Source of the DNA: Bdellovibrionales bacterium
Lineage (GTDB): Bacteria; Bdellovibrionota; Bdellovibrionia; Bdellovibrionales; UBA1609
Length of the DNA stretch: 64,000 nucleotides
Direction: 5' to 3'
Assembly (NCBI GenBank): GCA_965205645.1
Contig: OZ242172.1
Location: 576,122 to 640,121, forward strand
A program made the position numbers and the translations under genes. The notes under the pieces were generated by a model. That model searched no databases and was not told the DNA's origin. It saw only the letters and a list, made by a program, of their open reading frames with translations. Positions 9,511-57,141 of this stretch are shown piece after piece (the stretch's first letter is position 1; the number at the start of each line of letters is the position of its first letter).

Positions 9511-9543
9511 GCGGGAGTGGTGAAGTCACACCCCTTTGGGAGG
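9511..9543 (+). repeat. A-repeat, partial (head end only)
   Basis: gcgggagtggtgaagtcacacccctttgggagg corresponds to the CGCGGCGAAGTCAC-C5TTG5 end of the family. Confidence 0.6.
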
Positions 9544-9552
9544 CGAGTTATA

Positions 9553-9575
9553 TCTCAGTCGCTATTTGCAATTAA
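9553..9575 (+). repeat. Right copy of the 23-bp direct repeat bracketing the inserted cassette
   Basis: tctcagtcgctatttgcaattaa. It could also encode VAICN-stop like the left copy. Confidence 0.85.
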
Positions 9576-9580
9576 CGTAG

Positions 9581-9631
9581 TTTCTCAGGTAAAAATTTCT
9601 GTTCAAAGATTCAGACATATGTTTTGCCACC
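9581..9631 (+). repeat. Solo half of a B-repeat
   Basis: tttctcaggtaaaaatttctgttcaaagattcagacatatgttttgccacc matches the TCAAAAG-TCAGACATGCGTTTTG arm of the B family. Confidence 0.6.
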
Positions 9632-9688
9632 TTGCCATTGGGTCGGCGAGGACATTTATTTGTTAAAATGATTTACTAGTTTCTTCAG

Positions 9689-9788
9689 TTAAAAATCCAC
9701 CTCAAAAGTTCAGACATGCGTTTTGTTGTAAAGCGGACTTGCAGTCGCTTTGCAACAAAGCCGAACTCGTTTTGAGATGGATTTTTAA
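9689..9788. repeat. B-repeat hairpin element (100 bp)
   Basis: ttaaaaatccacctcaaaagttcagacatgcgttttgttgtaaagcggacttgcagtcgctttgcaacaaagccgaactcgttttgagatggatttttaa. The outer 19 nt are perfectly self-complementary. Confidence 0.85.
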
Positions 9789-9797
9789 TTAAAGAAA

Positions 9798-9875
9798 TTT
9801 ACATGATTTGTAAATATAATATGCGTGCAAGGAATCGCGGTGAAGTCACTCCCCCTTGGGGGGGCTAAGGTCTGG
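9798..9875 (+). repeat. A-repeat copy (short-core variant)
   Basis: tttacatgatttgtaaatataatatgcgtgcaaggaatcgcggtgaagtcactcccccttgggggggctaaggtctgg. Confidence 0.8.
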
Positions 9876-11121: not shown

Positions 11122-12294
11122 ATGGAAAAGGTAAAAAAGATGGAACAACAATTAAACAGTGATTTTAAAAAAATTAGACAGCCAACTACTTGGTTTTTTA
11201 TGGCTATGATTTTTATTTTTACTTTGCTAATAGGTATGGAGTTATTTGGTTGTTCGGGTCGTCCTGGTGCTTCTGGGGTATTTGATAATAATCAGAATCA
11301 ATTTTCTTCAGATGATAGTACGGAAAATTCCGGCATATTTGAAAGTGCTGATGGGCGATTAAATTCAGATGATTTGTGCTATAACAATGAATCGTGTGTG
11401 GAATTATGTAACTCTATGCTGAAAGATTTTTCCGATCAAAAGAGATGTTATTCTTATCAAGAAGTGGATGTGCAGGCGTTTAGGGATACTTATAACAATC
11501 TGGCTTTAGGTCAAAATTTAGGTGATGTAGACTCGGATGAAATGGAATCTTTTTTGGATTTTGGTGTGGAGATATGGCGGGACGCCATTACAGGTTTTGA
11601 GCGAGATTGGCAAAGTGGTTGTGAAGTAGGTGCAGATGAACGGCTAAGTGATTGCCAGGGTGATGATTATTATTTGCAACGTGGTTATACCCGGCAAGGT
11701 GCAGCAGCGGCGCTTAGTTGGATTGCCCGTAGTGATTGGCTCGCAAAACTATTGCTAGATTATGATAATGATTTTGTCGTTATAGACGCACTGGTTGCTG
11801 TTTTAATAGATCCTGATCTTCCTAAAAAATATATAAATTTAGATTCGCCTAATACAGAAGTGATTGAATCAATTAAAGTATTTCCTGATGAAGAGCAGTG
11901 TCGGTCATATGTTAATCCAACATCAGATAATGATCCAGCTGAACCTTTAACAGAAAATTTAGCATTTAATATTCCCTGTTTAGATCAGAATTTAAATTAT
12001 ATATTATTAGCTCGGAAATATGATAATGAAGAATCTATTTTGTTAGGTGATAGGTATTGTAGTTATCTGGGTGTAGATTGTACTTTAGAAACAGCTGAGA
12101 TTTTGTTTCAAGCCGCTCAAAATGAAGGCAGAGTATATTCTTTTATTTGTGATTTACTTAGAGATGCTGGACTGATCAGTAATTGTGGTAATGATGAATG
12201 CACAGCTTGTCAAAGTTTTCAGAGAATGCTTGGTAATCCTGTTTCTGCGTGTGAAGCTGATCCTATTACTGATCAGCAACCTTGTCTTCCTTAG
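11122..12294 (+). CDS. Cys-rich acidic secreted lipoprotein, paralog family member 3
   Basis: Lipobox LFG|C. CYNNESCVELCNSML, MESFLDFGVEIW and LSWIARSDW motifs, many further Cys. Start uncertain (several in-frame ATGs). Confidence 0.65.
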   Translation: MEKVKKMEQQLNSDFKKIRQPTTWFFMAMIFIFTLLIGMELFGCSGRPGASGVFDNNQNQFSSDDSTENSGIFESADGRLNSDDLCYNNESCVELCNSMLKDFSDQKRCYSYQEVDVQAFRDTYNNLALGQNLGDVDSDEMESFLDFGVEIWRDAITGFERDWQSGCEVGADERLSDCQGDDYYLQRGYTRQGAAAALSWIARSDWLAKLLLDYDNDFVVIDALVAVLIDPDLPKKYINLDSPNTEVIESIKVFPDEEQCRSYVNPTSDNDPAEPLTENLAFNIPCLDQNLNYILLARKYDNEESILLGDRYCSYLGVDCTLETAEILFQAAQNEGRVYSFICDLLRDAGLISNCGNDECTACQSFQRMLGNPVSACEADPITDQQPCLP

Positions 12295-12295
12295 T

Positions 12296-12332
12296 AAAAA
12301 ACCTTGTTTAAAAGTTCAGACATATGTTTTAC
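12296..12332 (+). repeat. Solo half of a B-repeat directly after the stop of family member 3
   Basis: aaaaaccttgtttaaaagttcagacatatgttttac. Confidence 0.55.
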
Positions 12333-12368
12333 TTCAGACATTTGTAAAAATGATTACAAAATTGTAAG

Positions 12369-12486
12369 TTTCTCTATTTAAAAACTCTACTCAAAACGAG
12401 TTCGGCTTTGGTGCAGAGCGACTGTAAGTCTGCTTTGCAACAAAACGCATGTCTGAGTTTTTGAGTAGAGTTTTTAAATAGAGAAA
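12369..12486. repeat. B-repeat hairpin element (118 bp)
   Basis: tttctctatttaaaaactctactcaaaa-cgagttcggctttggtgcagagcgactgtaagtctgctttgcaacaaaacgcatgtctgagt-ttttgagtagagtttttaaatagagaaa. The 28-nt outer arms are perfectly complementary. Confidence 0.9.
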
Positions 12487-12505
12487 TATACATCATAATT
12501 AGTGA

Positions 12506-12574
12506 AGTCGTGACAGGTGTGCAGCGGAGTTGCGGCGAAGTCACTCCCCCTTGGGGGGCGGGGCTTAGGTCTGG
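12506..12574 (+). repeat. A-repeat copy (short-core variant)
   Basis: agtcgtgacaggtgtgcagcggagttgcggcgaagtcactcccccttggggggcggggcttaggtctgg. Shares the trailing ggct(a/t)aggtctgg with the copy at 9798. Confidence 0.8.
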
Positions 12575-12770: not shown

Positions 12771-13913
12771 ATGCGTGGAATTAAAGAAGTATGGAATTTC
12801 ATTTGTGGTGCAGATAAAAAACTTATTCAAAAAGTTTTTGGCATATTAGTCAGTGGTTTTATTTTAACGGCGATTGTGTCAGCGGGCTTTATGTCTTGCA
12901 CACCGAATTTTGATGTGGATTCTGGCAGTTCCAGGGATAGCAATAACAATAGTGATGACGACGATGATGACGAAGATGATGGAGAAAAGTGCCTAGGTCA
13001 CGAAACTTGTGAAAAAATTTGTGAAAAAATTTATTATGCAGGCAGAGATCAAGTGGATTGCCAGGAAGAAGGCAGGAACAAAGTTGGTCGTTTGGATGAA
13101 ATATATGATCTTTTAAAAACAGGCGATTCTAGAGATTTAGAGAAAATTTTCCCAGATGAAGATGGGGTAGAACTAGATGATTTGGAAGATTATTTAAATA
13201 TTGGTATTTCTGGTGTGGAGGATTTGATTGATGAGAATAGTAAGGGTGATGATTATTGGGATGACATAAATAAGTTGGGATCTGTTTTAAAATGGATTAT
13301 TGATGAAGAAGATGTAGCAAATGTGTTAAATGGGTTAGATGATAATGGAGGACATCGTATTTTAGAAGAGCTTCTTGATAGAATGGAGGTTACTAAAGAC
13401 GGCGATTGTATTAGTAAGAATAGCCTTGCTTGTGGTACTAGTCCAACTATTAATCACGTAAATCATTATGACTATGATAGTAATAGTGGCCAAATTGAAA
13501 TTTGTACTGATAATAGAGATCCAACATTAAAAGGATCTGTTGATCTAGTTAATGGCGCTGATATACAATTATATGATGCTTTATCTTGTGTATATAATGA
13601 CTTAAGGGCTAATGGAAAAGATCAAAATGTGTTTTCTTATGCTAGTGTAAAAAATAATAGCATTATTTTTAATATGGCTTATAATTTATTAAATGATATT
13701 TGTGAAAATGTAGATGATCGCGATCCTGATCATCAAAGAGCTTGTAGAAAAGCTTTACTTTGTTGGACAGGTGTTCAAAGTGAAGAAGGTGATGATCCAA
13801 ATGAAAATTTTTTTAGGGAGTATGTGAATGATCATAGAAATGATTTAGAAAAAGATAGCGGTGGTTCTGACTATAATCAATGTCAACCAAGACATTTTGC
13901 CGATTTCTTTTAA
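12771..13913 (+). CDS. Cys-rich acidic secreted lipoprotein, paralog family member 4
   Basis: FMS|C lipobox-like site, poly-Asp/Glu linker, CLGHETCEKICEKIY, LEDYLNIGISG, LKWIIDEEDV, CRKALLCW, C-terminal NQCQPRHFADFF. Closest paralog of member 5. Confidence 0.7.
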   Translation: MRGIKEVWNFICGADKKLIQKVFGILVSGFILTAIVSAGFMSCTPNFDVDSGSSRDSNNNSDDDDDDEDDGEKCLGHETCEKICEKIYYAGRDQVDCQEEGRNKVGRLDEIYDLLKTGDSRDLEKIFPDEDGVELDDLEDYLNIGISGVEDLIDENSKGDDYWDDINKLGSVLKWIIDEEDVANVLNGLDDNGGHRILEELLDRMEVTKDGDCISKNSLACGTSPTINHVNHYDYDSNSGQIEICTDNRDPTLKGSVDLVNGADIQLYDALSCVYNDLRANGKDQNVFSYASVKNNSIIFNMAYNLLNDICENVDDRDPDHQRACRKALLCWTGVQSEEGDDPNENFFREYVNDHRNDLEKDSGGSDYNQCQPRHFADFF

Positions 13914-14360
13914 CCAGTTTTTTTCATTTCCTTTCAGTGCATCTTAAATTAGCAAAAAAATCCATGGAATATTATTATGAAAAATTTAATTCCACAAATT
14001 GTACTAGAATTAGTTAGCCTTATTAATAAAAGGTTTAGTAGTAGTTTGACAGAAAAGGAAAAAGAAAAGGAAAAAGAAAAGCTCCAATTTTTGATTGAAC
14101 AAGTTGAGCAAAAATATAAAGATTTAAAAAATTTCATTCTTTATGTGGCTGTCGGGCAGTTTATTTTAACCATTGTTGCTATGAGTGCTATTGTAACTAT
14201 GGTTGTAAATAAGATTTAATGTGAAACAATATCCAATTCTTTCATAAAATTGATCTTTATAACAATATAGCCGTTTACTCCGCTGCTATTCCAAACTTTT
14301 GTATCTATAGTTTTTTATATTTTCTAATGATCTTAATATGTTTTATACAATGCATTGGCA

Positions 14361-14512
14361 CAGTCGTGACATGCGTGCAAGGATTCACAGCGGCCGGCGA
14401 CTCGCCGCAGACATTTACTTGTAAACTTAATTAGCAAAGTTGTGACATGCGTGCAAAGAACTCGCGGCGAAAATGTCACCGGCAACTCGCCGGCCACTTT
14501 GAAGGGGGTGGA
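14361..14512 (+). repeat. Two tandem A-repeat copies (variant with a CCGGCGACTCGCCGG-type hairpin)
   Basis: cagtcgtgacatgcgtgcaaggattcacagcggccggcgactcgccg... then tttacttgtaaac...gtgacatgcgtgcaaagaactcgcggcgaaaatgtcaccggcaactcgccggccactttgaagggggtgg. Confidence 0.75.
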
Positions 14513-15128
14513 ATGGATTTTGCTAGAAGAGCTTGCAGGATTGAAAAGTGTATTCATTCACAAGCAAGAGGGCCTTCAGGAAGAGGATTTTAAATTCTTT
14601 TTTTCTAAGATTCCTGCTGAATCCAGAAAAATTATGCTAAATTATGGTTTGAAGATAATAGATACTCAGGATTCAAAGGTACGAAAAGCTTATAAAGGTC
14701 ATCAATTAAGAGGTCGTGGTGTTATAAAGCTATTATCTGAGATATGGAGTATAAAAAGACCTGCTCCGTCTAAAGTAAAGGAAATTTTTCACGATTTTGC
14801 CGATATACTGAAAAAGCTGAAAGGAAAACAAAGAAAGGACACAAGTCTAAGGATACTGGAATACTTAATTGATAATACGGGCTTAGATTTAAGGACATGG
14901 AAGAAAGCAGAGAAGTTGATTATAGAAGAGGGAATTTTAACCAGAGGAGGTGTTATGGACATAAGAGAACATATTAAAGAAAAAGGCCGTTGGGAAGGAA
15001 GACAGGAACGAAACAAGGAAGTTATTTTAAATATGCTAAAAGAGAAGGCAGATATTTCCTTTATTTCCAAAATTACAGGTTTGTCTGAGAAAGAAATAAA
15101 GAAACTAAAAAACGGTTTTTCATTATAA
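14442..15128 (+). pseudogene. Rpn/YhgA-like recombination-promoting nuclease (putative transposase), C-terminal fragment only
   Basis: The C-terminus GRWEGRQERNKEVILNMLKEKADISFISKITGLSEKEIKKLKN resembles the tail characteristic of Rpn-family proteins. No PD-(D/E)XK core is visible, and the first ~24 codons are read from an A-repeat copy. Confidence 0.4.
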
Positions 15129-15440: not shown

Positions 15441-15497
15441 CAGCTCATTCAGTGAAAATCACTCAATCTTATGACATACATCAAAAGGGATGTGGAG

Positions 15498-17503: not shown

Positions 17504-17506
17504 AAA
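17478..17506 (+). promoter_or_regulatory. Candidate pstS promoter lying inside the 5' end of divergent pdxJ
   Basis: TTGACA, 17-nt spacer, CATAAA, about 65 nt upstream of the pstS ATG. Conserved in the duplicated copy at 15404-15432. Confidence 0.35.
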
Positions 17507-17572
17507 ATCCTTAGGCGGTTTATTCAGTAAAAATCATTCAAGCTTATAACATACATCAAAAGGGATGTGGAG

Positions 17573-22728: not shown

Positions 22729-24146
22729 GTGACTTGTGCTTTTTTCACTTCATTCGCTAAATTTAATAATACGCTTTTATTGCGATGAATCATCTGATTT
22801 AAATGCTCCAAGCAACTATCCGCTGGAAACTGATGTAAAACATCCTTTATATAAGCAAATATCAAAAGCTCCCAAGCAGACTTCATGTCCAATCCACGAG
22901 TTTGTAAATAAAATATTTCGTTCGGATCAAAATTTCCCACCGCAGAACCATGCTGCGCCTGCACCTCGCTGCAATCAATCGCTAATTCCGGTTGGATGCA
23001 AGAGTGCGCACGATCACTTAATAATAAATTCTTGGCCGACTGACTGCAATCCACACCCTTTGCCCAAGATTCAACGTGTACCCGACCATGAAAAATACCC
23101 TTGGATTCATCATTCAATATCCCACGGCAAAATTGACGAGAATAACCCCCTGGCTTTAAATGATGCACATTAAACCGATGATCACTCTGATTCTTATTCT
23201 TTAAAATAGATAAACCTAATAATGTACTACGAGCTTTTTCCCCAACATGCACCACATCCGCCCTGTCCCTGGAAAACCGAGAACCTAAGCTAAAATGCAA
23301 ACGATCTATACTTGATTCTTTCTCCATCTCACTAATCGATTGATTAAAATAACAAGAAGAGCCACTGCCTTGCTCCACCCGAATCCATCGTAAAGCCGAC
23401 TGCTCAGAGTGATACACATTGGATACCGTATTCACTACTGCCTGTCCGTAATGAGAAATGTTCTCCACTAAAGTGAGCCGAGCTCCCTTACCCATAAAAA
23501 TAAAATTCCACCCCCCTAAGGGGGTTACTTTCGCCGCGGCTTCATTTACGTTATTGTCACTATCTTGCAAATCATGTTTACCCAGTGTCTCTGCCGACTC
23601 GGCGGCAAATACAGAATGAATGTGCAAAGCCTTAGAAGACTCATACCCATCCGGTATAAATAAAATATACCCACTTGGAAAAGCCCCAGCTAAATGAAAT
23701 AAACCATCTCCATTTCCAGCTACTTTTTTTTCTCCACGAAAACAATCCAATAACCAAGACCAACACGGAAAATCAGCATTCAACTGATCCCAAGTGCACC
23801 AACGCAAACCATCATCAATAGACGCTTCCACTAATTGATCATTATGAAAATGCAAACGATCTACATTTGGAAAATCAGCAATTAACTCTTCATTAATACT
23901 GTGCCGATCACTTACATTATTGCGCTCGGCATTCTGAAAAATGCTACGTAAAATATTCTGCACATAAGTAAACTGCCACCACTTGTCCGAACCCGACGGA
24001 AATCCCTTCTTTAAAAATTGAGCAAAATGCTTGTCCCGCATTTCACCCAATACCCGCCGCGAGTCCTCGGACGATAAGCCAAGCCATCCTTGCCGCTCCT
24101 GCTCAAATTCCTTTTTTAAAAATTCTATCCATCTGTCATCTGTCAT
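22725..24146 (-). CDS. sufD: Fe-S cluster assembly protein SufD (carries an in-frame A-repeat insertion)
   Basis: SufB/SufD C-terminal signature ...AQHGSAVGNFDPNEIFYLQTRGLDMKSAWELLIFAYI. Internal GKHDLQDSDNNVNEAAAKVTPLGG is encoded by the repeat at 23508-23583. Confidence 0.8.
   Translation of the reverse strand: MTDDRWIEFLKKEFEQERQGWLGLSSEDSRRVLGEMRDKHFAQFLKKGFPSGSDKWWQFTYVQNILRSIFQNAERNNVSDRHSINEELIADFPNVDRLHFHNDQLVEASIDDGLRWCTWDQLNADFPCWSWLLDCFRGEKKVAGNGDGLFHLAGAFPSGYILFIPDGYESSKALHIHSVFAAESAETLGKHDLQDSDNNVNEAAAKVTPLGGWNFIFMGKGARLTLVENISHYGQAVVNTVSNVYHSEQSALRWIRVEQGSGSSCYFNQSISEMEKESSIDRLHFSLGSRFSRDRADVVHVGEKARSTLLGLSILKNKNQSDHRFNVHHLKPGGYSRQFCRGILNDESKGIFHGRVHVESWAKGVDCSQSAKNLLLSDRAHSCIQPELAIDCSEVQAQHGSAVGNFDPNEIFYLQTRGLDMKSAWELLIFAYIKDVLHQFPADSCLEHLNQMIHRNKSVLLNLANEVKKAQVT
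23508..23583 (-). repeat. A-repeat copy (long-core form) inserted in frame in sufD
   Basis: ccacccccctaagggggttactttcgccgcggcttcatttacgttattgtcactatcttgcaaatcatgtttaccc. Confidence 0.9.
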
Positions 24147-25844: not shown

Positions 25845-27581
25845 TTAAGAACATTCTAATAAGCGATAAAAATCTGATTGGATTTTTTTTAGCTCTTTGT
25901 CAGATCGGCCGCCAAAACGAAAAGTAAACATGCTCTGTGTATTGGAAAGACGTGCCAGACCCCAAGCTTTCCCCGGAAAACATACCCGCACACCATCTAC
26001 TAAACATAACTGCGCTTCAGAATATTTCGCATAATGATCTTTGACTCGATTCAAAAGTTTGTGTGCCCGTGCTATGTCATTAACCGCTATACGTATCTCA
26101 TTCGTATGAACTCCAATGTTAGTAGGCAGTATTTTATCTAATAACTCTTCTACACGATACACACCACTCTCACATAAAATCCGTAACAAACGTAAAGTTG
26201 CATATACACCATCATCTAAAAAATAACCTTCATCACAAAAAAAGTAATGTCCGCTAAACTCACCACCGAATATCGCCCCTAATGCCAATGTTCGCCGACG
26301 AATTAAACTATGCCCCGACCCCCCAAGGGGGAGTGGTTTCGCCGCGGCTTCATTTACGTTATTGTCACGTCTTTGCTTCTCAAGGGGGAGTGGTTTCGCC
26401 GCGGCTTCATTTACGTTATTGTCACTATTTTGCAAATCATGTTTACCAAGTGCCAACGCAGATTTCTGCGTTTCTAAAAAATCAAAGAACCATGGGGCGC
26501 ATTTTACATCTGCGACAATAACACCGGCATCCTTATTCCGTTTCCATATATCAGAAATAAAAATCGCCATTAGCTCATCTCCATATAGCACCCTACCGGA
26601 TTCACTGATCACGACTAAACGATCCCCATCCCCATCCAAAGCCACTCCAAACTTTGCTCCACAGCTTCTTACCTTCTGACGTAAATCATTTAAATTTTCA
26701 TCTAAGGAAGGATCTGGATGATGATTCGGAAAACGTCCGTCCGGATCTGCATATAACCATTCAGCATTTAAACCTAACTCCTTAAAAACTGCTTGTGCCA
26801 CCGGCCCCGCTGCTCCATTTCCGCAATCCACTACAATGCTTCCCTGATCCTTCCACATTTTCCCTAACTGAGAAAATTTCTTTTTCATTAACTGAACATA
26901 AAAAGATATCACTGTATTATCTAAACTTTTGACTGACTTCTTCTCACGATTGATATTTGTTAAATGTCCACTGTCCGATACACAATGCTTGTCAGATAAA
27001 GATGTGGATTTTGTCTTTGCTAACAAAGAATCATCCGTAGATAATTGAAGGATAATATCTTTTAACTCTTGCAACTTCTCATCACATAAAGTTTCTTCAT
27101 ATACAGAAAATTTAAAGCCGTTAAAGTCAGCTGGGTTATGACTTGCCGTCACCATCACAGAAGCTGCGGTATCAGGAAAAAAATGGGAAGCAACAAAACA
27201 AACCGGAGTGGATACTAAACCTAAAAATTGTATCGGTGCTTGACCGGCAGTGAGTCCCTCTATTAAAGCATTTGTTACGTCTGGACTGCTTAAGCGACTG
27301 TCATGTCCCACTGCTACAAAGCTTAAAGACATAGGTGTGTCTAACAGTTTATCTTTTTTACTACTATGAAATGCCTTTTTGTCTTTTGTGATACTACGTT
27401 CACTGTTATTCCTAATGTTTGTGCGATATGAGATAAACTTAGCAAAAGCTATCCCCAAGTATCGCACGAAATCTAAATCAAAATCTTTTCCATATATTCC
27501 ACGAATATCATTTTTTCTAAAAATATCCGGATTCCATTTCATGTGCTTCAACCTAATATCCATCTCATACTCATTATGCAC
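25845..27581 (-). CDS. Phosphomannomutase/phosphoglucomutase (carries 1.5 in-frame A-repeat copies)
   Basis: Active-site TASHNPADFNGFKF, Mg site ALDGDGDRLVV, GHSLIRR sugar loop. The insertion ALGKHDLQNSDNNVNEAAAKPLPLEKQRRDNNVNEAAAKPLPLGG lies directly before GHS. Confidence 0.85.
   Translation of the reverse strand: MHNEYEMDIRLKHMKWNPDIFRKNDIRGIYGKDFDLDFVRYLGIAFAKFISYRTNIRNNSERSITKDKKAFHSSKKDKLLDTPMSLSFVAVGHDSRLSSPDVTNALIEGLTAGQAPIQFLGLVSTPVCFVASHFFPDTAASVMVTASHNPADFNGFKFSVYEETLCDEKLQELKDIILQLSTDDSLLAKTKSTSLSDKHCVSDSGHLTNINREKKSVKSLDNTVISFYVQLMKKKFSQLGKMWKDQGSIVVDCGNGAAGPVAQAVFKELGLNAEWLYADPDGRFPNHHPDPSLDENLNDLRQKVRSCGAKFGVALDGDGDRLVVISESGRVLYGDELMAIFISDIWKRNKDAGVIVADVKCAPWFFDFLETQKSALALGKHDLQNSDNNVNEAAAKPLPLEKQRRDNNVNEAAAKPLPLGGSGHSLIRRRTLALGAIFGGEFSGHYFFCDEGYFLDDGVYATLRLLRILCESGVYRVEELLDKILPTNIGVHTNEIRIAVNDIARAHKLLNRVKDHYAKYSEAQLCLVDGVRVCFPGKAWGLARLSNTQSMFTFRFGGRSDKELKKIQSDFYRLLECS
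26319..26447 (-). repeat. A-repeat, one truncated plus one full long-core copy, in frame in the phosphomannomutase gene
   Basis: ccccccaagggggagtggtttcgccgcggcttcatttacgttattgtcac, a 12-nt joint, then caagggggagtggtttcgccgcggcttcatttacgttattgtcactattttgcaaatcatgtttacc. Confidence 0.9.
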
Positions 27582-27602: not shown

Positions 27603-27708
27603 CTCCCAAAGAGAGTGACTTTCGCCGTCCGCGAGTTGCGACCCCCCAAGGGGGAGTGGTTTCGCCGCGATTCCTTCGTACTCATGTCACTATCTTGTAA
27701 ATGATATG
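27603..27708 (-). repeat. Two adjacent A-repeat copies (one partial), intergenic
   Basis: ctcccaaagagagtgactttcgccgtccgcgagttgcg then accccccaagggggagtggtttcgccgcgattccttcgtactcatgtcactatcttgtaaatgatatg. Confidence 0.8.
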
Positions 27709-27710
27709 GG

Positions 27711-27828
27711 TTTCTCCACTTAAAAATCTTATTCAAAACGAGTTTGGCTTTGAAGCAGAGCGACTGAAAGCTTGCTCTGCGGCAAAACGCATGTTTGAGC
27801 TTTTGAATAAGATTTTTAAGTGGAGAAA
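27711..27828. repeat. B-repeat hairpin element (118 bp)
   Basis: tttctccacttaaaaatcttattcaaaa-...core...-ttttgaataagatttttaagtggagaaa. Same core as 12369, different but self-complementary arms. Confidence 0.9.
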
Positions 27829-27843
27829 TGACTACCCCTGGAC

Positions 27844-27900
27844 TCCCTCACAAAGGGAGGTGACTTTACCGCAATTTCCTGCACTTATGTCATAATCTTG
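27844..27900 (-). repeat. A-repeat copy (diverged), intergenic
   Basis: ctccctcacaaagggaggtgactttaccgcaatttcctgcacttatgtcataatcttg. Confidence 0.65.
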
Positions 27901-27906
27901 TTCTGT

Positions 27907-28845
27907 TTACAAGTAAATGTTAACAGTGTTCATTGCCCACAGTAAAGCCCGCCGCATCGATTCCGCAGAAGCCTTGTTCTGTCCAAAAATATTTTTAGCG
28001 GTGCCATGACTCACACTAGTTCTTACAAAAGGTAACCCTAAACTCAGTTGAAAACTCTGTGTCCCATGTGCCATTTTAAATGGAATTAAAGCTTGATCAT
28101 GATACAAACAAACATATAGGGAAAAACAAGGCCAATTACTTTTTAAAAAGGCGCTATCCGGTACTAAAGGTCCTGTTACTTCCTTTGACCACTTTTTTAA
28201 ATATAATTTCAGAGTGGATTCTTCGGTGCCTAGTAATCCCTCTTCCCCTGCATGTGGGTTAAGTCCCAATATTGCTATTGGTTTGTTTTGGTAAGTTTCT
28301 GGTAAACACTTTCGTAGATGACAACATAAATGCAAACATCTGTCTAAGTCGTTGGGTGTCCATGTGATTTTCTTTAAAGGAACATGGCCAGTTAACAATG
28401 TCACATTAAAGTAATCCCCTAAGAAAGTCATAAACACTGTCTTTGCTCCGGAAATTCTCTGTAAAAGCGGTGTGTGTCCTTTTTCAGAAAAATGATCTGC
28501 TTGCATTTGTGTTTTAGATAAGGGACCTGTAACCATTATTTCATCAGACGGACTACGGGTGCATCGTTGCGCTACCGTTTCCACCCACTGTGTTGGACGG
28601 GTAACAGAAGCGATATCTAATAATATGTTTTCTGTTTTGGGTGCAGTATTTAAGTCATTTATATTATTGAGTGTAACGATTCGTCCAGGCCATTTAAAAA
28701 TGTGAAATAGATCTTGTCCAACTCCTTGTTGCCTCCATAACACAAATTGTACACCGGTGCATTGGCCTATTGTCGCTAACGCTTTTAAGCTAACTTCCAG
28801 TCCAATACCGTCTGTATCACCAGTGGTGATGTGAATGCGCTTCAT
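27907..28845 (-). CDS. pdxA: 4-hydroxythreonine-4-phosphate dehydrogenase
   Basis: ITTGDTDGIGLEV and GLNPHAGEEG motifs. Downstream of the surA-like gene, the same surA-pdxA order found in E. coli. Confidence 0.85.
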   Translation of the reverse strand: MKRIHITTGDTDGIGLEVSLKALATIGQCTGVQFVLWRQQGVGQDLFHIFKWPGRIVTLNNINDLNTAPKTENILLDIASVTRPTQWVETVAQRCTRSPSDEIMVTGPLSKTQMQADHFSEKGHTPLLQRISGAKTVFMTFLGDYFNVTLLTGHVPLKKITWTPNDLDRCLHLCCHLRKCLPETYQNKPIAILGLNPHAGEEGLLGTEESTLKLYLKKWSKEVTGPLVPDSAFLKSNWPCFSLYVCLYHDQALIPFKMAHGTQSFQLSLGLPFVRTSVSHGTAKNIFGQNKASAESMRRALLWAMNTVNIYL

Positions 28846-37721: not shown

Positions 37722-37826
37722 CGCCCCCCAAGGGGGGATGACTTCGCCGCGATTCCTCTGCACGCCTGTTACAACTTTGCCGATTATGTTTACAAATAAA
37801 AGCCTGTGGTAACTTGCTGCCGCCAC
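37722..37826 (-). repeat. A-repeat copy plus adjacent variant tail, intergenic
   Basis: cgccccccaaggggggatgacttcgccgcgattcctctgcacgcctgttacaactttgccgattatgtttacaaataaaagcctgtggtaacttgctgccgccac. Confidence 0.75.
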
Positions 37827-40322: not shown

Positions 40323-41612
40323 TTGAAAAAAATGTTTAACGTAAAATTATTTCACACTTGTATAAATATTAGACGATATATTCGTAAGTACTTAAAATAT
40401 ATAGAATTTAATAAAATTTTATCAGAAAATACCTGTCGAGCTTACCATATAGATTTAAGACAGTTGTTAATAAATTATCATCCGGTGCTTGGTAATTTAT
40501 TTTCTTTAAAAGGTTGGAAACTATACACTGATTTGTCTCAGGATGAGTCTGTTTTTGGCGTAGAGAGTGACTTATTTTCAGACATTGTTCATCAGCAGGT
40601 TGGTGGCGGGTTGCTACGGGCACTTACTTGTAAACATGATGTGCAAGATAGTGACAATAACGTAAATGCAGCCGCGGCGAAAGTAACCCCCTCTGGGGGT
40701 GGCAGGTCACCACGGGCACTTACTTGTAAACATGATGTGCAAGATAGTGACAATAACGTAAATGCAGCCGCGGCGAAAGTAACCCCCTCTGGGGGTATGG
40801 ATCCATTAGAGGAGAAGTGGGTAGGGGAGATGATGAAATACAGTTTTAAGAAGTGGGCTTCATTATCTCCGGCATCTCGTAATCGAAAGTATGCTTGTTT
40901 GAAAGCTTTTTTATCTTGGTTATTTGTTCATGGAGGAGTGCAGGTGGATATGCAGAGTTGGATTAAGCTACCACGTGTTCCTCAACGTATCCCTTATTAC
41001 TTATCTGTAGATGAGGCTCTTTACTTAATAAAGACTGTGCAAAAACAGGCAAACGCAAAAGAAAGAGATCGGGATTTATTATTAATTCTTTTGCTATATG
41101 GTGGCGGACTGAGGGTGAGTGAGGCTTGTGGTATGCAGTGGAATCAAGTGGATATAGCGAATGGTTGTTTACGTGTATTAGGTAAGGGTGGAAAAGAAAG
41201 GTTAGTGACAGTGCCAAAAGTGGTGTTAAAGGAGTTAGGTCGCTGTCAAAGTCTTCAGCATGACAAACATAATTTGCAAAGCAATAAAAAGGGAGCAGCG
41301 GAATCGCGGCGAAACGTTCCTCGCGACCCGCGAGTTTTTCCTGGGTTAGCGGTTAGGCAGGCTTATGAGATCGTTCGACGTTGGGGTCAGCGTGCGGGTT
41401 TAAGTAAACCGTTAAGTCCTCATGTTTTGCGACACAGTTTTGCGACACATTTATTAAGCAGTGGATCTGATTTACGTACTTTACAGGAGTTATTGGGGCA
41501 TCGTTCTTTGAGTGCTACTCAAAAGTATACGCACTTACAGATGTCACATTTGAATCGTTTGTTAGAATCTTATCATCCTTTACGTAATCGTCAGCGCGAT
41601 AAATCACGTTGA
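40323..41612 (+). CDS. Tyrosine site-specific recombinase XerC/XerD family (three in-frame A-repeat insertions)
   Basis: LRVSEA (Arg I), HVLRHSFATHLL and LLGHRSLSATQKYTH (catalytic Tyr). Two 32-codon tandem insertions LTCKHDVQDSDNNVNAAAAKVTPSGG in the N-terminal domain and a variant copy in the catalytic domain. Confidence 0.85.
   Translation: MKKMFNVKLFHTCINIRRYIRKYLKYIEFNKILSENTCRAYHIDLRQLLINYHPVLGNLFSLKGWKLYTDLSQDESVFGVESDLFSDIVHQQVGGGLLRALTCKHDVQDSDNNVNAAAAKVTPSGGGRSPRALTCKHDVQDSDNNVNAAAAKVTPSGGMDPLEEKWVGEMMKYSFKKWASLSPASRNRKYACLKAFLSWLFVHGGVQVDMQSWIKLPRVPQRIPYYLSVDEALYLIKTVQKQANAKERDRDLLLILLLYGGGLRVSEACGMQWNQVDIANGCLRVLGKGGKERLVTVPKVVLKELGRCQSLQHDKHNLQSNKKGAAESRRNVPRDPRVFPGLAVRQAYEIVRRWGQRAGLSKPLSPHVLRHSFATHLLSSGSDLRTLQELLGHRSLSATQKYTHLQMSHLNRLLESYHPLRNRQRDKSR
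40617..40796 (+). repeat. Two tandem long-core A-repeat copies (96-bp period) in frame in xerC/D
   Basis: cgggcacttacttgtaaacatgatgtgcaagatagtgacaataacgtaaatgcagccgcggcgaaagtaaccccctctgggggt occurs at 40617 and again at 40713. Confidence 0.9.
41259..41334 (+). repeat. Variant A-repeat copy in frame in the xerC/D catalytic domain
   Basis: catgacaaacataatttgcaaagcaataaaaagggagcagcggaatcgcggcgaaacgttcctcgcgacccgcgag. The tail and cgcggcgaa core are recognisable; the head resembles the partial copy at 27603. Confidence 0.6.
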
Positions 41613-41645: not shown

Positions 41646-41686
41646 ATTTAAATATTCTGCTCAAAAGCTCAGACATGCGTTTTGCC
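41646..41686 (+). repeat. Half B-repeat, left of the A copy
   Basis: gatttaaatattctgctcaaaagctcagacatgcgttttgcc. Confidence 0.7.
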
Positions 41687-41752
41687 CCCCAAGGGGGAGT
41701 GACTTCGCCGCGGCTGCATTTACGTTATTGTCACAGCTTTGCATATTTTGTG
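41685..41752 (-). repeat. A-repeat copy (long-core form), intergenic, flanked by two half B-repeats
   Basis: ccccccaagggggagtgacttcgccgcggctgcatttacgttattgtcacagctttgcatattttgtg. Confidence 0.85.
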
Positions 41753-41770: not shown

Positions 41771-41807
41771 ATCCTGCTCAAAAGTTCAAACATATGTTTT
41801 ATCCCCC
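41771..41807 (+). repeat. Half B-repeat, right of the A copy, same orientation as the left half
   Basis: atcctgctcaaaagttcaaacatatgttttatccccc. Confidence 0.7.
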
Positions 41808-46961: not shown

Positions 46962-46982
46962 GTTATTTAATCAAAATAATGA

Positions 46983-47043
46983 ACTGCGTGCAAGGAATCA
47001 CGGCGAAAATGTCACCGGCGACCTGCCGGCCCCTTTGAGGGAG
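46983..47043 (+). repeat. A-repeat copy (hairpin variant) between convergent genes, overlapping the enoyl-CoA hydratase 3' end
   Basis: actgcgtgcaaggaatcacggcgaaaatgtcaccggcgacctgccggcccctttgagggag. Confidence 0.8.
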
Positions 47044-53532: not shown

Positions 53533-54803
53533 TCACTCTTCCTTACACCAGCTTCCGATGCGAAAGCTAAAATACAGTTAGATACTTCAGATAATAATAT
53601 TTTTTGTTTGTGATGATTTTTTCGATTCACTAATTCCACACCGGACGACGCAATATCTCTGGCGCCTATGTCAACTCTTAGTGGCATTCCTAATAAATCA
53701 GCATCTTTAAACTTCACACCTGGTTTTTCCAACCGGTCATCCAAAAAGACGTCTATTCCTTTATCCCATAAAGATTGATATAATTTTTCTGCTGCAGCCG
53801 CTGTTTCTTTATGCTCCGGATCCAATAAGCAAATATGTACTAAAAATGGAGCCACCGACACTGGCCATATCAACCCATTTGCATCATGGCTTTGCTCTAA
53901 AACTGCTTGAATCGTTCGTGTGATCCCAACACCATAACAACCCATCTGCACGTTTTGCTGTTCACCTTTTTTGTCCTTATAGACCACTGACATGGCTTTA
54001 GAATATTTGTCTCCTAGATAAAAAATATGTCCTGTTTCAATGCCTTTGGCTCTTTGAAAAACTTGTCCGTCTGGTGAAGTATCTCCGACGCGCAGTTTTA
54101 GATTTAAAGCCTGACTCACAGCCGTCGTGTCTGTGACTAATAATTCACTTTCTCCTTGCTGGGCTAAGATGTGAAATTCTTCTGACTGACTGCCCCCTAT
54201 TTCGCCACTGTCCGCTTGTACAATGCGGAATTTAACCCCTAGCTGCGAGAAAATAGCCTGATACGCCGTTCGCATTTTTTGATAACTCTTTTCCGCTTGC
54301 TGTACATCAGAGTCAAAGCTGTACGCATCTTTCATAATAAATTCTTTGGCTCTCATTAAACCAAATCGTGGGCGAATTTCATCACGAAACTTCGTTTGAA
54401 TCTGATATAAATACAAAGGTAAATCCCGATAACTATTAATGTCATTTTTCACATATTCCGCAATAACTTCTTCATGCGTGGGACCTAAGCAAAAATCCCG
54501 TCCAGTTCGGCTTGTCATCTTTTGCAATAGATCATCGTATAACTTCCACCGACCGCTTTGTACCCAAATTTCCTTCGGTTGTACCATCGGCATTAAGATT
54601 TCTATACAATCTATTTTATCTAATTCCTTACGTACAATTTGTTCAAATTTTTTAATAGAACGAAGAAGCAAAGGCCCATAAGTAAAAATCCCGGCAGATA
54701 ATTTTTTAAGATATCCCCCTCGCGCAAGTAAGGCATAACTGATGAGACCACTGTCCGCTGGGTCTTGTCTTAAAGTTTTTATGCCTACGTTCCGCCACTT
54801 CAT
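53529..54803 (-). CDS. proS: Prolyl-tRNA synthetase (short form without a large editing insertion)
   Basis: Class II motif 2 FRDEIRPRFGLMRAKEFIMKDAYSF, motif 3 GCYGVGITR, C-terminal anticodon-binding domain. Confidence 0.9.
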   Translation of the reverse strand: MKWRNVGIKTLRQDPADSGLISYALLARGGYLKKLSAGIFTYGPLLLRSIKKFEQIVRKELDKIDCIEILMPMVQPKEIWVQSGRWKLYDDLLQKMTSRTGRDFCLGPTHEEVIAEYVKNDINSYRDLPLYLYQIQTKFRDEIRPRFGLMRAKEFIMKDAYSFDSDVQQAEKSYQKMRTAYQAIFSQLGVKFRIVQADSGEIGGSQSEEFHILAQQGESELLVTDTTAVSQALNLKLRVGDTSPDGQVFQRAKGIETGHIFYLGDKYSKAMSVVYKDKKGEQQNVQMGCYGVGITRTIQAVLEQSHDANGLIWPVSVAPFLVHICLLDPEHKETAAAAEKLYQSLWDKGIDVFLDDRLEKPGVKFKDADLLGMPLRVDIGARDIASSGVELVNRKNHHKQKILLSEVSNCILAFASEAGVRKSE

Positions 54804-54821
54804 TCGTGTACTCGCTTTTTA

Positions 54822-56189
54822 CTAAGATTGAATCGTTTTAATGTTAACAAATTCATAAAATCCCCACTCAGAAAGTTCTCTTCCATAACCAGAATTTTTA
54901 ATACCTCCAAAAGGTAAAGCAGGATGAGAATGCATTGCATGGCCTATAGAACAACTCCCAACCTTTAATTCATCCCGCGCAATCCGTTCCGCTTTTTTTC
55001 TATCCGTGCCAAATACTGCCGCACCTAAACCATAATTAGAATGATTCGCTGCTTGTACCGCCTCTGCTTCATTTGATACAACAATAATCAAGGCCACAGG
55101 ACCAAATAACTCCTCTTTATATTCTTCTGTTAAAGAAAATTTATCTTGTCTTAATACTGTCGGAGGATAAAAATACCCTTTACGTTTCAAACATTTCCCT
55201 CCTAATAGTAATTTCATTGAATCATTTAATTTTTGCACTTGTCTATGTAAATTATCTCTCAACTCCTCCCTCGCTAAAGGGCCTAATAATGTGTCCGGTA
55301 AACTTGGATCGCCTGTGCGATAACCTCGCATTTTTTCTATTACTATGTCTGTAAAATAATCTGCATTTTTTCTTGTCACAATAAATCGCTTAGCTGCAAT
55401 ACAGCTTTGTCCATTGTTAACCATTCTACCAGCTACACATTCTTCTGCAGCAGACTCTACGTCTACTGAATCCAAAAGTAAATAAGGATCACTTCCTCCA
55501 AGCTCTAACACAGTTTTTTTTAGATGCCGTCCAGCTAATTCTGCCACTATGCGTCCTGCTCTCACACTGCCTGTTAAAGACACTCCTTGCACTCTCTGAT
55601 CTTGAATTAATTTTGCTGTTTGTTCTAAAGATACCGGTAGATTTTGATAGACACCTTTTGGAAAATCTGCTTCTTGAAATATTGTTTCTAATTGTTTTGC
55701 AGTGCCCATTGTATTAGGGGCATGCTTAATTAAGACCGTGTTTCCACTTAGTATACTCGGTAGTGCAAAACGACAGACCTGCCAAACCGGAAAATTCCAG
55801 GGCATAATACCCAAAATCACTCCCAGACTGCGGTACACGACATAAGAACCGGCCGGTGCCATTGGCAATTTTTGTTTCTCTGTTAAAAATTTCTCCGCAT
55901 TTTGAGATGCAAAGTCACAAAAATGAATACATTTTTTAATCTCCGCTTCTGACTGCTGAAGGGGTTTGCCCATCTCTTGAGTGATGAATGTTGCTAATTG
56001 TTTCTTGTTCTTTTCCAAAGATAATATCAGTCGACGAACAACTTCACACCGATTTTTTATCGCTTGCCGAGACCATGACATTTGCCACGTCCGATCAGCT
56101 AATTCTAAAGCCTGTTCCACTTTTTCATCTGAAAAAAGAGCAGTTTGTAAAAAACATTCTTCTGTATAAGGATTAACAGAACGAAACAT
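54822..56189 (-). CDS. NAD(P)-dependent aldehyde dehydrogenase, succinate-semialdehyde dehydrogenase-like
   Basis: VLELGGSDP and NNGQSCIAAKR (catalytic Cys) motifs; the 455-aa length matches this subfamily. Confidence 0.8.
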   Translation of the reverse strand: MFRSVNPYTEECFLQTALFSDEKVEQALELADRTWQMSWSRQAIKNRCEVVRRLILSLEKNKKQLATFITQEMGKPLQQSEAEIKKCIHFCDFASQNAEKFLTEKQKLPMAPAGSYVVYRSLGVILGIMPWNFPVWQVCRFALPSILSGNTVLIKHAPNTMGTAKQLETIFQEADFPKGVYQNLPVSLEQTAKLIQDQRVQGVSLTGSVRAGRIVAELAGRHLKKTVLELGGSDPYLLLDSVDVESAAEECVAGRMVNNGQSCIAAKRFIVTRKNADYFTDIVIEKMRGYRTGDPSLPDTLLGPLAREELRDNLHRQVQKLNDSMKLLLGGKCLKRKGYFYPPTVLRQDKFSLTEEYKEELFGPVALIIVVSNEAEAVQAANHSNYGLGAAVFGTDRKKAERIARDELKVGSCSIGHAMHSHPALPFGGIKNSGYGRELSEWGFYEFVNIKTIQS

Positions 56190-56880
56190 CAGATAATCTA
56201 GTTGGAATATTTTTCATCTTTTGTCGTTTCAGGATTGGCCAAAACCAGGACAACAGAGAATCTCCTTCAATCACTTCTTCCAATGTGATTGCTTTTTTCA
56301 TGATTCCCTTTTTTTCACGGCTTGAAACAGGCAAAATAGAAATATAATGATTAAAATATTGGGTTTTATTCCATTCCATAAATACTTTATTTTCCATTTT
56401 GGAAAAATATTGCATGGAAAAATAAGGAGATTGAGGGGATTTTCTTTTATAAACTTTTAATATCTTTTGATCAAAATCTTCTCCATGTACAATATTTAGT
56501 AATACTTTTTCAAATGTTTTAGCTCTTGCACAAACACATAATGCCGGAGATACACCGACTAAAAAATCCGGGTGTGCAGCTGTGACTCGTATTAGCCTCT
56601 CGTATAAGCCCATATTGACTAAGAAAGACATCAAACGTATATGAATCACTGAATCCAAAGATTCCTTGCGCTCCATTAAGCCCCATAACCATAAAGGGAC
56701 TGGTAAGCCACGATTTTTTAAAATCTGTCGCGCTTTACTCATACATAACATAACGTCCGGAATTCGGGCGTAATGACGGAATACGCTACTGGAATGAGAT
56801 ACCGATGGATAAAAAAACACCGCCTTTATCTTATTTTTTGCTATCACTCCGTTTGTCTTTACATTATCTATTCTCATCAA
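56173..56880 (-). CDS. Hypothetical protein
   Basis: 235-aa ORF overlapping the downstream dehydrogenase start by 17 nt. No motif recognised. Confidence 0.4.
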   Translation of the reverse strand: MMRIDNVKTNGVIAKNKIKAVFFYPSVSHSSSVFRHYARIPDVMLCMSKARQILKNRGLPVPLWLWGLMERKESLDSVIHIRLMSFLVNMGLYERLIRVTAAHPDFLVGVSPALCVCARAKTFEKVLLNIVHGEDFDQKILKVYKRKSPQSPYFSMQYFSKMENKVFMEWNKTQYFNHYISILPVSSREKKGIMKKAITLEEVIEGDSLLSWFWPILKRQKMKNIPTRLSDVSFC

Positions 56881-57075
56881 TATTCCATTTTTATTAAGAT
56901 TAATTTTTTAAGTATATTTGCTGTGTTTTCTATACTCCCTACATTAATATAACAACTTTGTTTACCACCTTTTAGTTATTAAAAACATAAAAATTAAATT
57001 TGATCACTAAAAAAAATTAAACACCACTTTTTTACACAAACAATGTACATTCTTACATCCTTTGTGAAAACATTT

Positions 57076-57141
57076 CACCCCCAAAGGGGGTTACTTTCGA
57101 CGCGGCTGCATTTACATTATTGTCACTACTGTGCAAATTAT
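57076..57141 (-). repeat. A-repeat copy (long-core form), intergenic
   Basis: cacccccaaagggggttactttcgacgcggctgcatttacattattgtcactactgtgcaaattat. Confidence 0.85.

Follow-up and report, generated by a model that had tools for sequence, protein, structure and literature searches.

The 64 kb window analysed here, that is the whole stretch of DNA under study, carries a dense family of GC-rich miniature repeats, the A-repeats. They are selfish DNA of the RPE/REP/MITE kind without a match to a named family in Rfam, plasmids or phages, and they probably form a non-autonomous family specific to one lineage, that of a Bdellovibrionales-like bacterium with a reduced, AT-rich genome. Selfish hairpin repeats lying in frame in housekeeping genes follow a Rickettsia-like pattern, here with unrelated sequence and in another phylum.

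In the window, CCCCCWWGGGGG occurs six times (0.00 expected by chance), and CGCGGCGAARTMAC at up to 2 mismatches occurs seven times (0.39 expected). Ten seed A copies were used for an nhmmer profile, which recovered from the window 11 strong copies, at E 1e-14 to 1e-21, and six further copies, partial or diverged, at E < 0.01; with a mini copy at 27604-27641, this makes 18 full or partial copies at 12 loci, from 9507 to 57144. They total 1293 nt, about 2% of the window DNA, and have a GC content of 50% compared with 37% for the window. The enrichment over chance, the copy number and the base composition show that the dense GC-rich family described in the sequence-only reading is real; its count of about 19 copies was close, and its 15 loci are reduced to 12. 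Copies on both strands, inside genes and between genes, were found as that reading had stated.

The A unit is about 70-110 nt long. A GC-rich hairpin of free sequence stands at its head and is followed by the conserved box (G/T)TGAC(A)TTTCGCCGCG, then by one of two alternative 14-16-nt segments and by TGTCACnnnYTTGCAAATCATGTTTAC. The tail often ends with a second GC hairpin or is broken by a palindromic element, B. Alignment of the alternative segments defines subfamily a (...GCTKCATTTACGTTAT..., 7 copies) and subfamily b (...ATTCCTTGCACGCA..., about 10 copies), which differ by 2 nt in the length of the segment. What had been taken for an optional ATAACGTAAATGMAGC insert is one of these two versions of the same segment and not optional, and the supposed second variant with a replaced head (14392-14505 and 46972-47041) proved in the alignment to keep a degenerate head, with an additional CCGGCGAnnnGCCGG hairpin placed between this head and the box. 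A perfect stem of at least 5 bp adjoins the box in 33 of 43 A copies, against a control rate of 17%, and those 33 copies have 24 different stem sequences: the structure of the head hairpin is conserved and its sequence is not.

When four A copies were folded on both strands, the z-scores ranged from -0.3 to -2.9, only short GC hairpins formed consistently, and no single long stem-loop spanned the element. In some copies the box and next segment (TTTCGCCGCGGCTGCATTTAC) pair with the tail (GTAAATGyCTGCGGCGA) as a weak terminal inverted repeat (TIR), with z-scores of -2.9 and -1.7 in two copies. This pairing, the small size, the multiple copies and the lack of enzyme-coding capacity would suit a classical MITE, an internally deleted IS that is moved in trans by a DDE transposase binding TIRs and making target-site duplications. 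We consider that origin quite unlikely. Apart from the short hairpins, the folding of most A copies is no better than that of shuffled sequence (z-scores -0.3 to -0.8), the ends are variable and modular, and at the three in-gene sites whose flanks could be read there is no visible duplication of the target. No transposase domain is present among the window ORFs of at least 100 aa, in agreement with the earlier statement that no transposase is linked to the repeats, and no RAYT, IS200-like, DDE transposase or other IS was seen in ~190 kb (~12% of the genome). Of the earlier label of REP/MITE-type elements, the part that stands is that of dispersed miniature non-autonomous repeats; the strict traits of those classes, namely well-formed TIRs and an accompanying RAYT/IS200-like gene in that ~190 kb, were not found.

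Element B, of about 121-125 nt, is distinct from A. It is B, not A, that folds as a long palindrome. Its core is conserved across many Bdellovibrionales MAGs, and B is an older, clade-wide element. Within the A tail it lies at the motif ACATRATTTGCAA, and its presence varies between strains. The first A locus begins just downstream of gene 8582-9490 with a partial minus-strand copy made of a degenerate head hairpin and the box (9507..9543, E 0.0017). There, the 121-nt palindrome B (9679..9799, plus strand, E 6e-37, fold z-score -7.4) splits an A copy into a tail fragment (9630..9678, minus), which matches the A tail ...GACATTTAYTTGTAAAMATGAT and whose motif ATGATTT is found again beyond B, and a subfamily b body with the head CCCCCTTGGGGGG (9796..9863, minus, E 3.6e-14, supported by alignment). 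The same arrangement on the minus strand was found at 12335..12366 (tail fragment, from reading the sequence), 12367..12487 (B, E 1.1e-37) and 12483..12558 (subfamily b body and head, E 5.3e-17). Two minus-strand copies then adjoin each other: a partial one (14353..14391, E 0.00097), whose head is a GCGGCGAGTCGCCGGCC hairpin that is also the end of its neighbour, and a subfamily b copy (14392..14505, E 1e-10) with the extra hairpin, here CCGGCGAGTTGCCGG, and a full tail with hairpin. The 364-bp spacer between pdxA and pgm is filled by an A/B/A mosaic; relatives have no such spacer, their pdxA and pgm genes being directly adjacent. On the plus strand the spacer holds the mini unit (27604..27641, read from the sequence and aligned), with degenerate head, box and second hairpin, and a subfamily b copy with B in place of its tail (27642..27714, E 1.4e-17); B itself (27710..27829, minus, E 1.5e-36) lies between this copy and another of subfamily b (27847..27930, plus, E 4.1e-07), in whose tail pdxA (27907-28845, minus) has its final codons and its TAA stop. 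Other plus-strand copies are a subfamily b unit in the divergent spacer between an acyltransferase gene and serA (37724..37815, E 4.6e-19; the same site is filled in L327), a subfamily a unit found by nhmmer (41685..41752) with half-B elements on either side (41640-41686 and 41770-41801), and a subfamily a unit with B in place of its tail (57078..57144, E 4.4e-19), which is abutted by B (57148..57270, plus, E 1.6e-34, fold z-score -11). A minus-strand copy of subfamily b (46972..47041, E 0.002), in which the extra hairpin is CCGGCAGGTCGCCGG, contributes the end of an enoyl-CoA hydratase gene (47012-47785, minus), with its C-terminal PSKGPAGRR and its stop codon. Copies at gene ends provide terminal codons and stop codons.

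One third of the A copies of the window are intragenic. In sufD (22725-24146, minus), a subfamily a copy on the plus strand (23511..23606, nhmmer) encodes AAESAETLGKHDLQDSDNNVNEAAAKVTPLGG in frame, and alignment with orthologs reveals a replaced loop and no fewer than 10 additional residues. The pgm/pmm gene (25845-27581, minus) holds, in frame and on the plus strand, a 57-nt partial unit (26319..26375, nhmmer) and a full 96-nt subfamily a unit (26376..26471, nhmmer), which together with the alignments place ~46 extra residues in a position where PDB homologs and 17 orthologs have none. An xerC/D-like gene (40323-41612, plus) has two insertion sites, and relatives without the insert exist. Its first site holds two tandem in-frame subfamily a units on the minus strand, 40602..40697 (96 nt, found by nhmmer) and 40698..40796, 96% identical to each other; the second, in the part encoding the catalytic domain, holds an in-frame subfamily b copy (41265..41335, minus, E 5.5e-07) with the head CTCGCGGGTCGCGAG. 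Overall, A lies in frame within no fewer than 10 different genes (sufD, pgm, xerC at 2 sites, gcvP, xth, nnr, ogt, an amidase gene, a pilM-like gene and an unknown gene) and adds a peptide of 20-50 residues (...KHDLQDSDNNVNEAAAKVTPLGG) to the host proteins. Tandem arrays inside ORFs reach 2 units in XerC and 5-6 in the PilM-like protein. We infer from the reading frame and from stop-codon conservation that the in-gene copies are translated in frame. In an AlphaFold model of the A-bearing PGM (pTM 0.82), insert residues 366-408 have a pLDDT below 50 and no secondary structure; in this prediction, the A peptide forms a disordered loop and leaves the enzyme otherwise intact. These in-frame insertions had been missed in the sequence-only reading, as had the conservation of the hairpin structure and the mosaics with B.

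All 10 in-gene A loci have one common orientation. This strict single frame and orientation, the conserved hairpin structure and the fact that A copies are kept at the same sites in two strains could point to a function, either as a selected peptide module (tag, linker or interaction motif) or as an RNA or DNA signal (terminator, promoter or protein-binding site). The frame bias is accounted for by stop codons and hydropathy, since A is free of stops in only two of the six frames and the one used in genes is hydrophilic, with a GRAVY of -0.78, compared with +0.66 for the other, unused one. Moreover, the host proteins are unrelated in function (SufD, PGM, XerC, GcvP, Xth, Ogt, AmpD-like, PilM-like), the in-gene copy number differs between strains, the prediction for the peptide is one of disorder, enrichment at promoters or terminators was not found, and the family is missing from all but the closest relatives. 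A selected function is therefore very improbable in our view. The orientation of the intergenic copies (co-directional 6 vs 2, not significant) has no bearing either way on a role at the RNA level.

An exhaustive profile search with the A peptide identified a PilM-like protein, an AmpD-like protein, Ogt and an unknown protein, all encoded outside the window on the same 1,555,701-bp contig and matching the window solely through the A segment. This contig, the 1.56 Mb host chromosome, is Bdellovibrionales-like and belongs to a relative of Bdellovibrio; the genome is reduced and AT-rich. A sister strain with 96-97% DNA identity has 18 A copies in 63 kb and a relative from a sponge metagenome has 9 in 21 kb. 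The A family is dispersed over the genome and common to close relatives, and not confined to the window. The high local density, and nothing else, would fit a local duplication or an assembly artefact of this window, and the probability of this is negligible given the A-bearing proteins elsewhere on the contig and the copies in three independent assemblies (ENA ERZ25067264, ENA ERZ922809 and Logan SRR1576521). No A match was found in 802 kb of other Bdellovibrionales MAGs, and these 802 kb have 2 C5+N1-4G5+ hairpins, compared with 10 in the 64 kb of the window. Searches of GTDB representatives and JGI metagenomes gave chance matches only, and plasmids and phages gave no match. At gathering score, the Rfam scan of the window returned just RNase P RNA and a tRNA; permissive scans of the A and B loci yielded generic hairpins only, far below threshold. 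That A is not a named repeat family, as had been suspected, is borne out by Rfam, plasmids and phages.

Strains that are 96-97.6% identical were compared. The first xerC site has two tandem A units in the window and one in the L327 strain. At the second (41265..41335), B is also present in L327 and L328 and absent in the window, and this polymorphic B has an imperfect 14-nt direct repeat on its flanks. A degenerate A+B block is present in one strain only. Between the two close strains, the changes seen were in tandem copy number and in B, and A was not found newly inserted at any fresh site. Locally, the A family expands and contracts as whole units are duplicated in tandem or deleted. The A copies share 60-90% identity with one another, which would also suit an old family that is no longer active.

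Such gain and loss of tandem units, and the mosaic, module-swapping architecture, are what would be expected if no dedicated enzyme were involved and A and B spread by homologous recombination or gene conversion between copies, replication slippage at hairpins and unequal crossing-over, perhaps aided by a general recombination-promoting nuclease such as Rpn. The 14-nt repeats around B in the L327 xerC differ at 2 positions, a difference more easily explained if a B-in-A block came from another copy than by a new duplication of the target. Rpn-like C-terminal fragments adjoin A copies at two non-orthologous loci. One is the ORF 14442..15128 (plus strand), which starts inside an A copy and whose last 100 residues resemble the Rpn-family C-terminal domain (TIGR01784, E 6e-8); at the other, a 240-nt copy of this fragment, 80% identical, lies between A copies (L324, 14538-14766). 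From its sequence, the ORF is possibly the remnant of a recombination enzyme gene, which we offer as a lead only: the match scores 32.8 bits, below the 52.1-bit cut-off of the family, and is without the nuclease domain. Recombination of this kind also leaves unexplained the first arrival of A in the conserved pgm, ogt, xth and gcvP genes without prior homology, and we rate it as the main alternative, if a rather unlikely one.

For the primary dispersal of A we tentatively favour, with confidence that falls short of even, catalysis in trans by an enzyme encoded elsewhere, which would read the folded hairpin and the adjacent box and leave no target duplication. This would be the logic of REP/RAYT and of IS200/IS605 ends. 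By analogy with the Rickettsia elements, for which tolerance was shown experimentally, A would have no cellular function and its in-gene copies would be tolerated passengers.

The Rickettsia palindromic elements (RPE) are the closest analogue of A, because the in-gene A copies are in frame, in one orientation and one frame. With the RPE work of Ogata et al. (2000, 2002) as summarised in PMC2229807 and PMC10969869, A and RPE are alike as ~100-nt repeats of a reduced, AT-rich ~1.5 Mb genome, both intergenic and in frame in many unrelated conserved genes, with an open frame of their own, a short peptide tolerated by the enzyme, no linked transposase, no clear target duplication and several subfamilies. 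The RPE trait of about 100-150 nt with an own open frame, in frame in unrelated genes, is found in A. The two differ in that the A host is Bdellovibrionota-like and the RPE hosts are Alphaproteobacteria, A is GC-rich within an AT-rich genome, the RPE is one long stem-loop whereas A is a box with a short hairpin of variable sequence, and A forms tandem arrays inside ORFs and is interleaved with element B. A also has no sequence relation to RPE: when ten A-bearing proteins were scanned against NCBIfam at E <= 1, no RPE-domain model, of which the library presumably has some, was among the hits.

Similar to REP/BIME/REPIN elements with their RAYT (IS200/IS605-like Y1), A combines a short GC-rich hairpin with a conserved short sequence, forms mosaics of modules as in the BIMEs of E. 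coli, shows no target duplication at its readable in-gene sites and has a high copy number. REPs are extragenic by definition, whereas A, which has the hairpin and box, is often intragenic and in frame (a third of the copies); in addition, no RAYT gene was seen in the ~190 kb, a GTAG-type tetranucleotide is absent from A, and its hairpin is far more variable (24 variants in 33 copies) than that of a REP family. The GC clusters of yeast mitochondria are GC-rich palindromic mobile units in very AT-rich DNA and occur occasionally in coding sequence. They are elements of a eukaryotic organelle with other sequence and ends, and the likeness is one of analogy only. As described in PMC2229807, the 107-bp form of Correia/NEMIS, ERIC and YPAL (MITEs with ORFs) are mostly AT-rich and are marked by defined TIRs, by TA ends or by target duplications that can be measured, none of which was seen in A. 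According to the same source, they are, like A, small non-autonomous repeats, some of which join a host ORF in frame or give gene ends, and they show filled and empty sites between close strains, which we observed here for B.

A profile built from ten copies of the A-repeats, a family of short GC-rich repeats, gave 17 matches at E < 0.01 in the window; with one mini unit added, there are 18 copies at 12 loci between positions 9507 and 57144, summing to 1293 nt with a GC content of 50% (37% on average for the window). Both the head motif and a conserved box exceed chance expectation by far, and the dispersed family proposed in the sequence-only reading is therefore real. When aligned, the copies follow a modular plan. 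The head is a GC hairpin, usually C5-6 N2-3 G5-6, followed by the conserved box (A)GTGAC/TTAC-TTTCGCCGCG and then by either of two segments, GCTKCATTTACGTTAT in subfamily a or ATTCCTTGCACGCA, 2 nt shorter, in subfamily b. The fourth module is TGTCACnnnYTTGCAAATCATGTTTAC and the tail is AAGTAAATGyC, often with a second GC hairpin at its end. The alignment also corrects two points of anatomy: the insert described as optional is one of the alternative a and b segments, and the supposed second head variant replaces nothing and is an added hairpin.

When 43 copies of the window and of related loci were pooled, a perfect stem of 5 bp or longer was found immediately ahead of the box in 33 of them, formed by 24 different sequences (for example CCCCCCAAGGGGG, CCCGCGAGTCGCGGG, GTGGCGTATCGCCAC, CTCGCGGGTCGCGAG and CCCTCCAAGAGGG); such a stem is present in 17% of random 33-nt windows. 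The head hairpin is conserved as a structure. Short hairpins aside, the folding of whole copies is hardly better than that of shuffled sequence. The head hairpin of an in-gene copy in xerC (41320-41334) is followed by TTTTT and was scored as terminator-like though it lies within coding sequence. A promoter or terminator role of the repeats was rejected, as no enrichment was seen.

In the window, A-repeats are found in frame within sufD, pgm/pmm and a xerC/D-like recombinase gene, the last with two sites, one of which holds two tandem 96-nt units. The predicted peptide of in-gene copies, such as those of pgm and xerC, is KHDLQDSDNNVNEAAAK. In PGM the insert amounts to about 46 extra residues between two conserved strands, and it is missing in the solved homologs and in 17 orthologs of the clade. 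In the AlphaFold model of the protein (pTM 0.82), residues 366-408 have a pLDDT below 50 and no secondary structure, and the remaining fold is confident. Residues 54-71 and 179-208 of the same protein are also low-confidence in the model and lineage-specific, and are not derived from A. Two further copies overlap the 3' ends of pdxA and of the enoyl-CoA hydratase gene, where they provide the last codons and the stop codon. Because of the inserts, domain matches are broken up and housekeeping proteins fall below family cut-offs, which affects the annotation of genomes that bear the repeats.

The 96-nt unit has two stop-free frames out of six: the sense frame, which is hydrophilic (GRAVY -0.78), and an antisense frame, which is hydrophobic and cysteine-rich (+0.66). 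The hydrophilic sense frame is used at 10 of 10 in-gene loci in the window and its relatives; for intergenic copies flanked by co-directional genes, the lead of this orientation is no more than 6 to 2. The orientation bias is thus explained by selection on the peptide and not by replication; a replication-linked orientation was rejected, since the repeats change strand along with gene direction several times in the 64 kb. Removal of the inserts by splicing or translational bypass was judged unlikely, because the host frame is open in every in-gene A and B copy (B is a second, palindromic element) and an open frame would be needless if the inserts were removed.

An exhaustive search of 1.84 billion representative proteins with a profile of the A-encoded peptide returned eight matches, a lower bound since the library holds one representative per 50%-identity cluster. 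Four of the eight (a PilM-like protein, an AmpD-like amidase, Ogt and an unknown protein) are encoded on the same 1.56 Mb contig as the window and resemble it solely in the A segment; the PilM-like protein carries 5-6 tandem 23-residue units. ENA assembly ERZ25067264 is the source of three others (Xth, Nnr and a homolog of the unknown protein); its contigs have 18 A copies in 63 kb, some of them in gcvP. The DNA of one of these contigs, L327 from a close sister strain, shares 96-97.6% identity with the window between 35.3 and 50.7 kb. Nine copies were counted in 21 kb of a more distant relative, which comes from a sponge metagenome (L328/L329). Confinement to the window, the outcome that the sequence-only reading had set against its own claim, is not what was found, since the repeats occur elsewhere on the same contig and in the assemblies of relatives. 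In 802 kb from many other Bdellovibrionales MAGs there were zero A matches and only 2 head-type hairpins, which argues that the family is specific to a narrow lineage. Searches of GTDB representatives and JGI metagenomes with an exact 18-mer and a degenerate pattern gave single chance matches in unrelated taxa. The methylcrotonyl-CoA carboxylase beta subunit of the window reaches no more than 75% identity with proteins from MAGs of uncultured 'Bdellovibrionales bacterium', the top match coming from a 1.41 Mb chromosome, and the window's own proteins are carried by a single 1,555,701-bp contig. The window thus stems from a small-genome member of a Bdellovibrionales-like clade. This reduced-genome lineage may live in association with a host; a sponge metagenome yielded one relative.

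Element B, which forms mosaics with the A-repeats, is a palindrome of about 125 nt with fold z-scores of -7 to -13. Full copies are located in the window at 9679-9799, 12367-12487, 27710-27829 and 57148-57270, and half copies at 9580-9629, 12287-12338, 41640-41686 and 41770-41801. Each full copy is in contact with the ACATRATTTGCAA motif of an A tail. The core consists of ...AAAAGCTCAGACATGCGTTTTGCC, a central hairpin and TCAAAGCCGAACTCGTTTT..., and this asymmetric core (CAGACATGCGTTTTGCC ... TCAAAGCCGAACTCG) is conserved across many Bdellovibrionales MAGs. The core pattern was found in at least 116 stretches (loci L208-L323), nearly all from Bdellovibrionales MAGs among the matches listed, and nhmmer detected at least 150 B copies in these loci. 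A direct count of arm complementarity gave 92% for the two outer 24-nt arms of one copy and 46% for arms of different copies; arms from different loci are 42% identical. RNAalifold gave no consensus structure for 143 copies, because the variable arms misalign. B is thus older and more widespread than A, its asymmetric core being conserved and its arms co-varying. Some B copies lie in frame within genes, with the predicted peptide ...LKSSDMRFA.... It had no family match in Rfam and may represent either a family of RNA genes or a mobile palindrome of unusual type; this companion element merits its own study.

Most A copies of the window are at identical sites in L327, so that no A transposition is visible since the two strains split. 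At the first XerC site, two tandem A units are present in the window versus one in L327; more distant relatives have a remnant, a b-type copy or nothing. At the second XerC site, L327 and L328 contain a 150-nt in-frame B, and the window, without B, kept one copy of the B-flanking 14-nt repeat AACATAATTTGCAA. A degenerate A plus B is found in the hydratase-carboxylase spacer of L327 only. In the window, pdxA and pgm are separated by a 364-bp A/B/A mosaic; in relatives these genes abut or overlap. The mosaic arrangement, the changes in tandem units and the imperfect repeats that flank B would fit recombination between copies.

The A-repeats behave like the Rickettsia palindromic elements (RPEs) as described in PMC2229807 and PMC10969869, which are about 100-150 nt long, reside in AT-rich genomes of 1.1-1.5 Mb and form in-frame fusions with many conserved genes. 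The enzymes tolerate these fusions, and no transposase is known for RPEs. Unlike RPEs, the A-repeats occur in another phylum, show no sequence relation to them and do not form one long stem-loop, and they are not members of that family. They share with REP/BIME elements the hairpin-plus-box logic and the mosaic organisation; unlike these, they are not confined to extragenic DNA, and they have no known RAYT gene. The earlier REP/MITE-type label therefore stands in part: these are miniature repeats, but the extragenic trait of REPs fails for copies in genes, and the terminal inverted repeats and target duplication of a strict MITE are unproven. The literature search turned up no paper on these repeats. 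The A-repeats are real: they form a lineage-specific family of selfish coding repeats found across the genome, which joins the RPE/REP/MITE kind of DNA and is not a new kind of system. High-frequency in-frame colonisation of conserved genes by selfish repeats is, to our knowledge, essentially limited to Rickettsia, and the A-repeats are an independent second example of heavy colonisation of housekeeping genes in an unrelated reduced-genome lineage. Frequent colonisation of this type elsewhere was only speculated on in a 2024 MITE review (PMC10969869). The structure-conserved hairpin beside the box, the tandem growth in ORFs, the strain-level polymorphism and the partner B should ease the study of the mechanism.

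The statement that no transposase is linked to the repeats agrees with our data: window ORFs of at least 100 aa contain no transposase domain, and no transposase is annotated in the related loci. The sole recombinase of the window is the XerC/D-like gene, itself host to three A copies. The dif, attC and integron-like sites considered for this recombinase were compared by eye only and discarded, the resemblance being too weak. The ORF at 14442-15128 begins within an A copy, and at its C-terminus it has a sub-threshold match (TIGR01784, E 6e-8) to the C-terminal domain of recombination-promoting nucleases of the Rpn (YhgA-like) family. A 240-nt copy with 80% identity lies between A copies at a non-orthologous site of the sister strain (L324, 14538-14766), and the ORF is a candidate lead on mobilisation. 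Hairpin-guided mobilisation of the REP/RAYT-like or IS200/IS605-like type would best fit the hairpin, the box and the lack of a visible target duplication. A more speculative and rather improbable extension is that A and B would make up a two-tier translated selfish DNA, spread by an enzyme acting in trans that reads the folded GC hairpin and the box; this enzyme may be an Rpn-type PD-(D/E)XK nuclease or a RAYT-like protein. If true, it would give a first handle on the driver of RPE-like coding repeats, which for the Rickettsia RPEs is, as far as we know, a question still open after 25 years; it would also provide a second, independent instance of many housekeeping proteins being remodelled by selfish DNA.

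The PGM orthologs of the clade vary from 465 to 611 aa and have many lineage-specific inserts (alignment including P0015, P0048, P0050, P0024 and P0045). A similar peptide, NQTGFEK..., is found at different positions in P0015 versus P0048 and P0050, and P0050 contains an in-frame tandem duplication. It is probable that further genomes of the clade possess coding repeat families of their own.

The genes of the window are an ordinary bacterial housekeeping set, with the RNase P RNA and one tRNA. Two paralogous genes (12771-13913 and 15471-16658), 70-89% identical in blocks at the nucleotide level, encode acidic cysteine-containing proteins without family match; upstream regions are duplicated too (15313-15654 versus 17388-17738). 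The tandem paralogs at 33238-33840 and 33883-34497, about 200 aa each and 91-93% identical in DNA, also lack a family match. The short spacer that separates sufD from the cysteine desulfurase gene contains three tandem 51-nt repeats, 84-90% identical, at 22577-22727. Within a Cu/Zn superoxide dismutase-like gene (62345-63646), a pentapeptide repeat tail is encoded by about 20 tandem units of 15 nt (GGCAGTAAAGTCCAA and variants) at 63172-63486. The RNase P RNA gene region is present twice in L327 (960-1457 and 3393-3889), each copy being about 96% identical to window 34589-35302. The two copies flank an insertion of about 2 kb with an AAA_14/DUF4143 ATPase gene, and the arrangement resembles that of an integrated element with a duplicated target.
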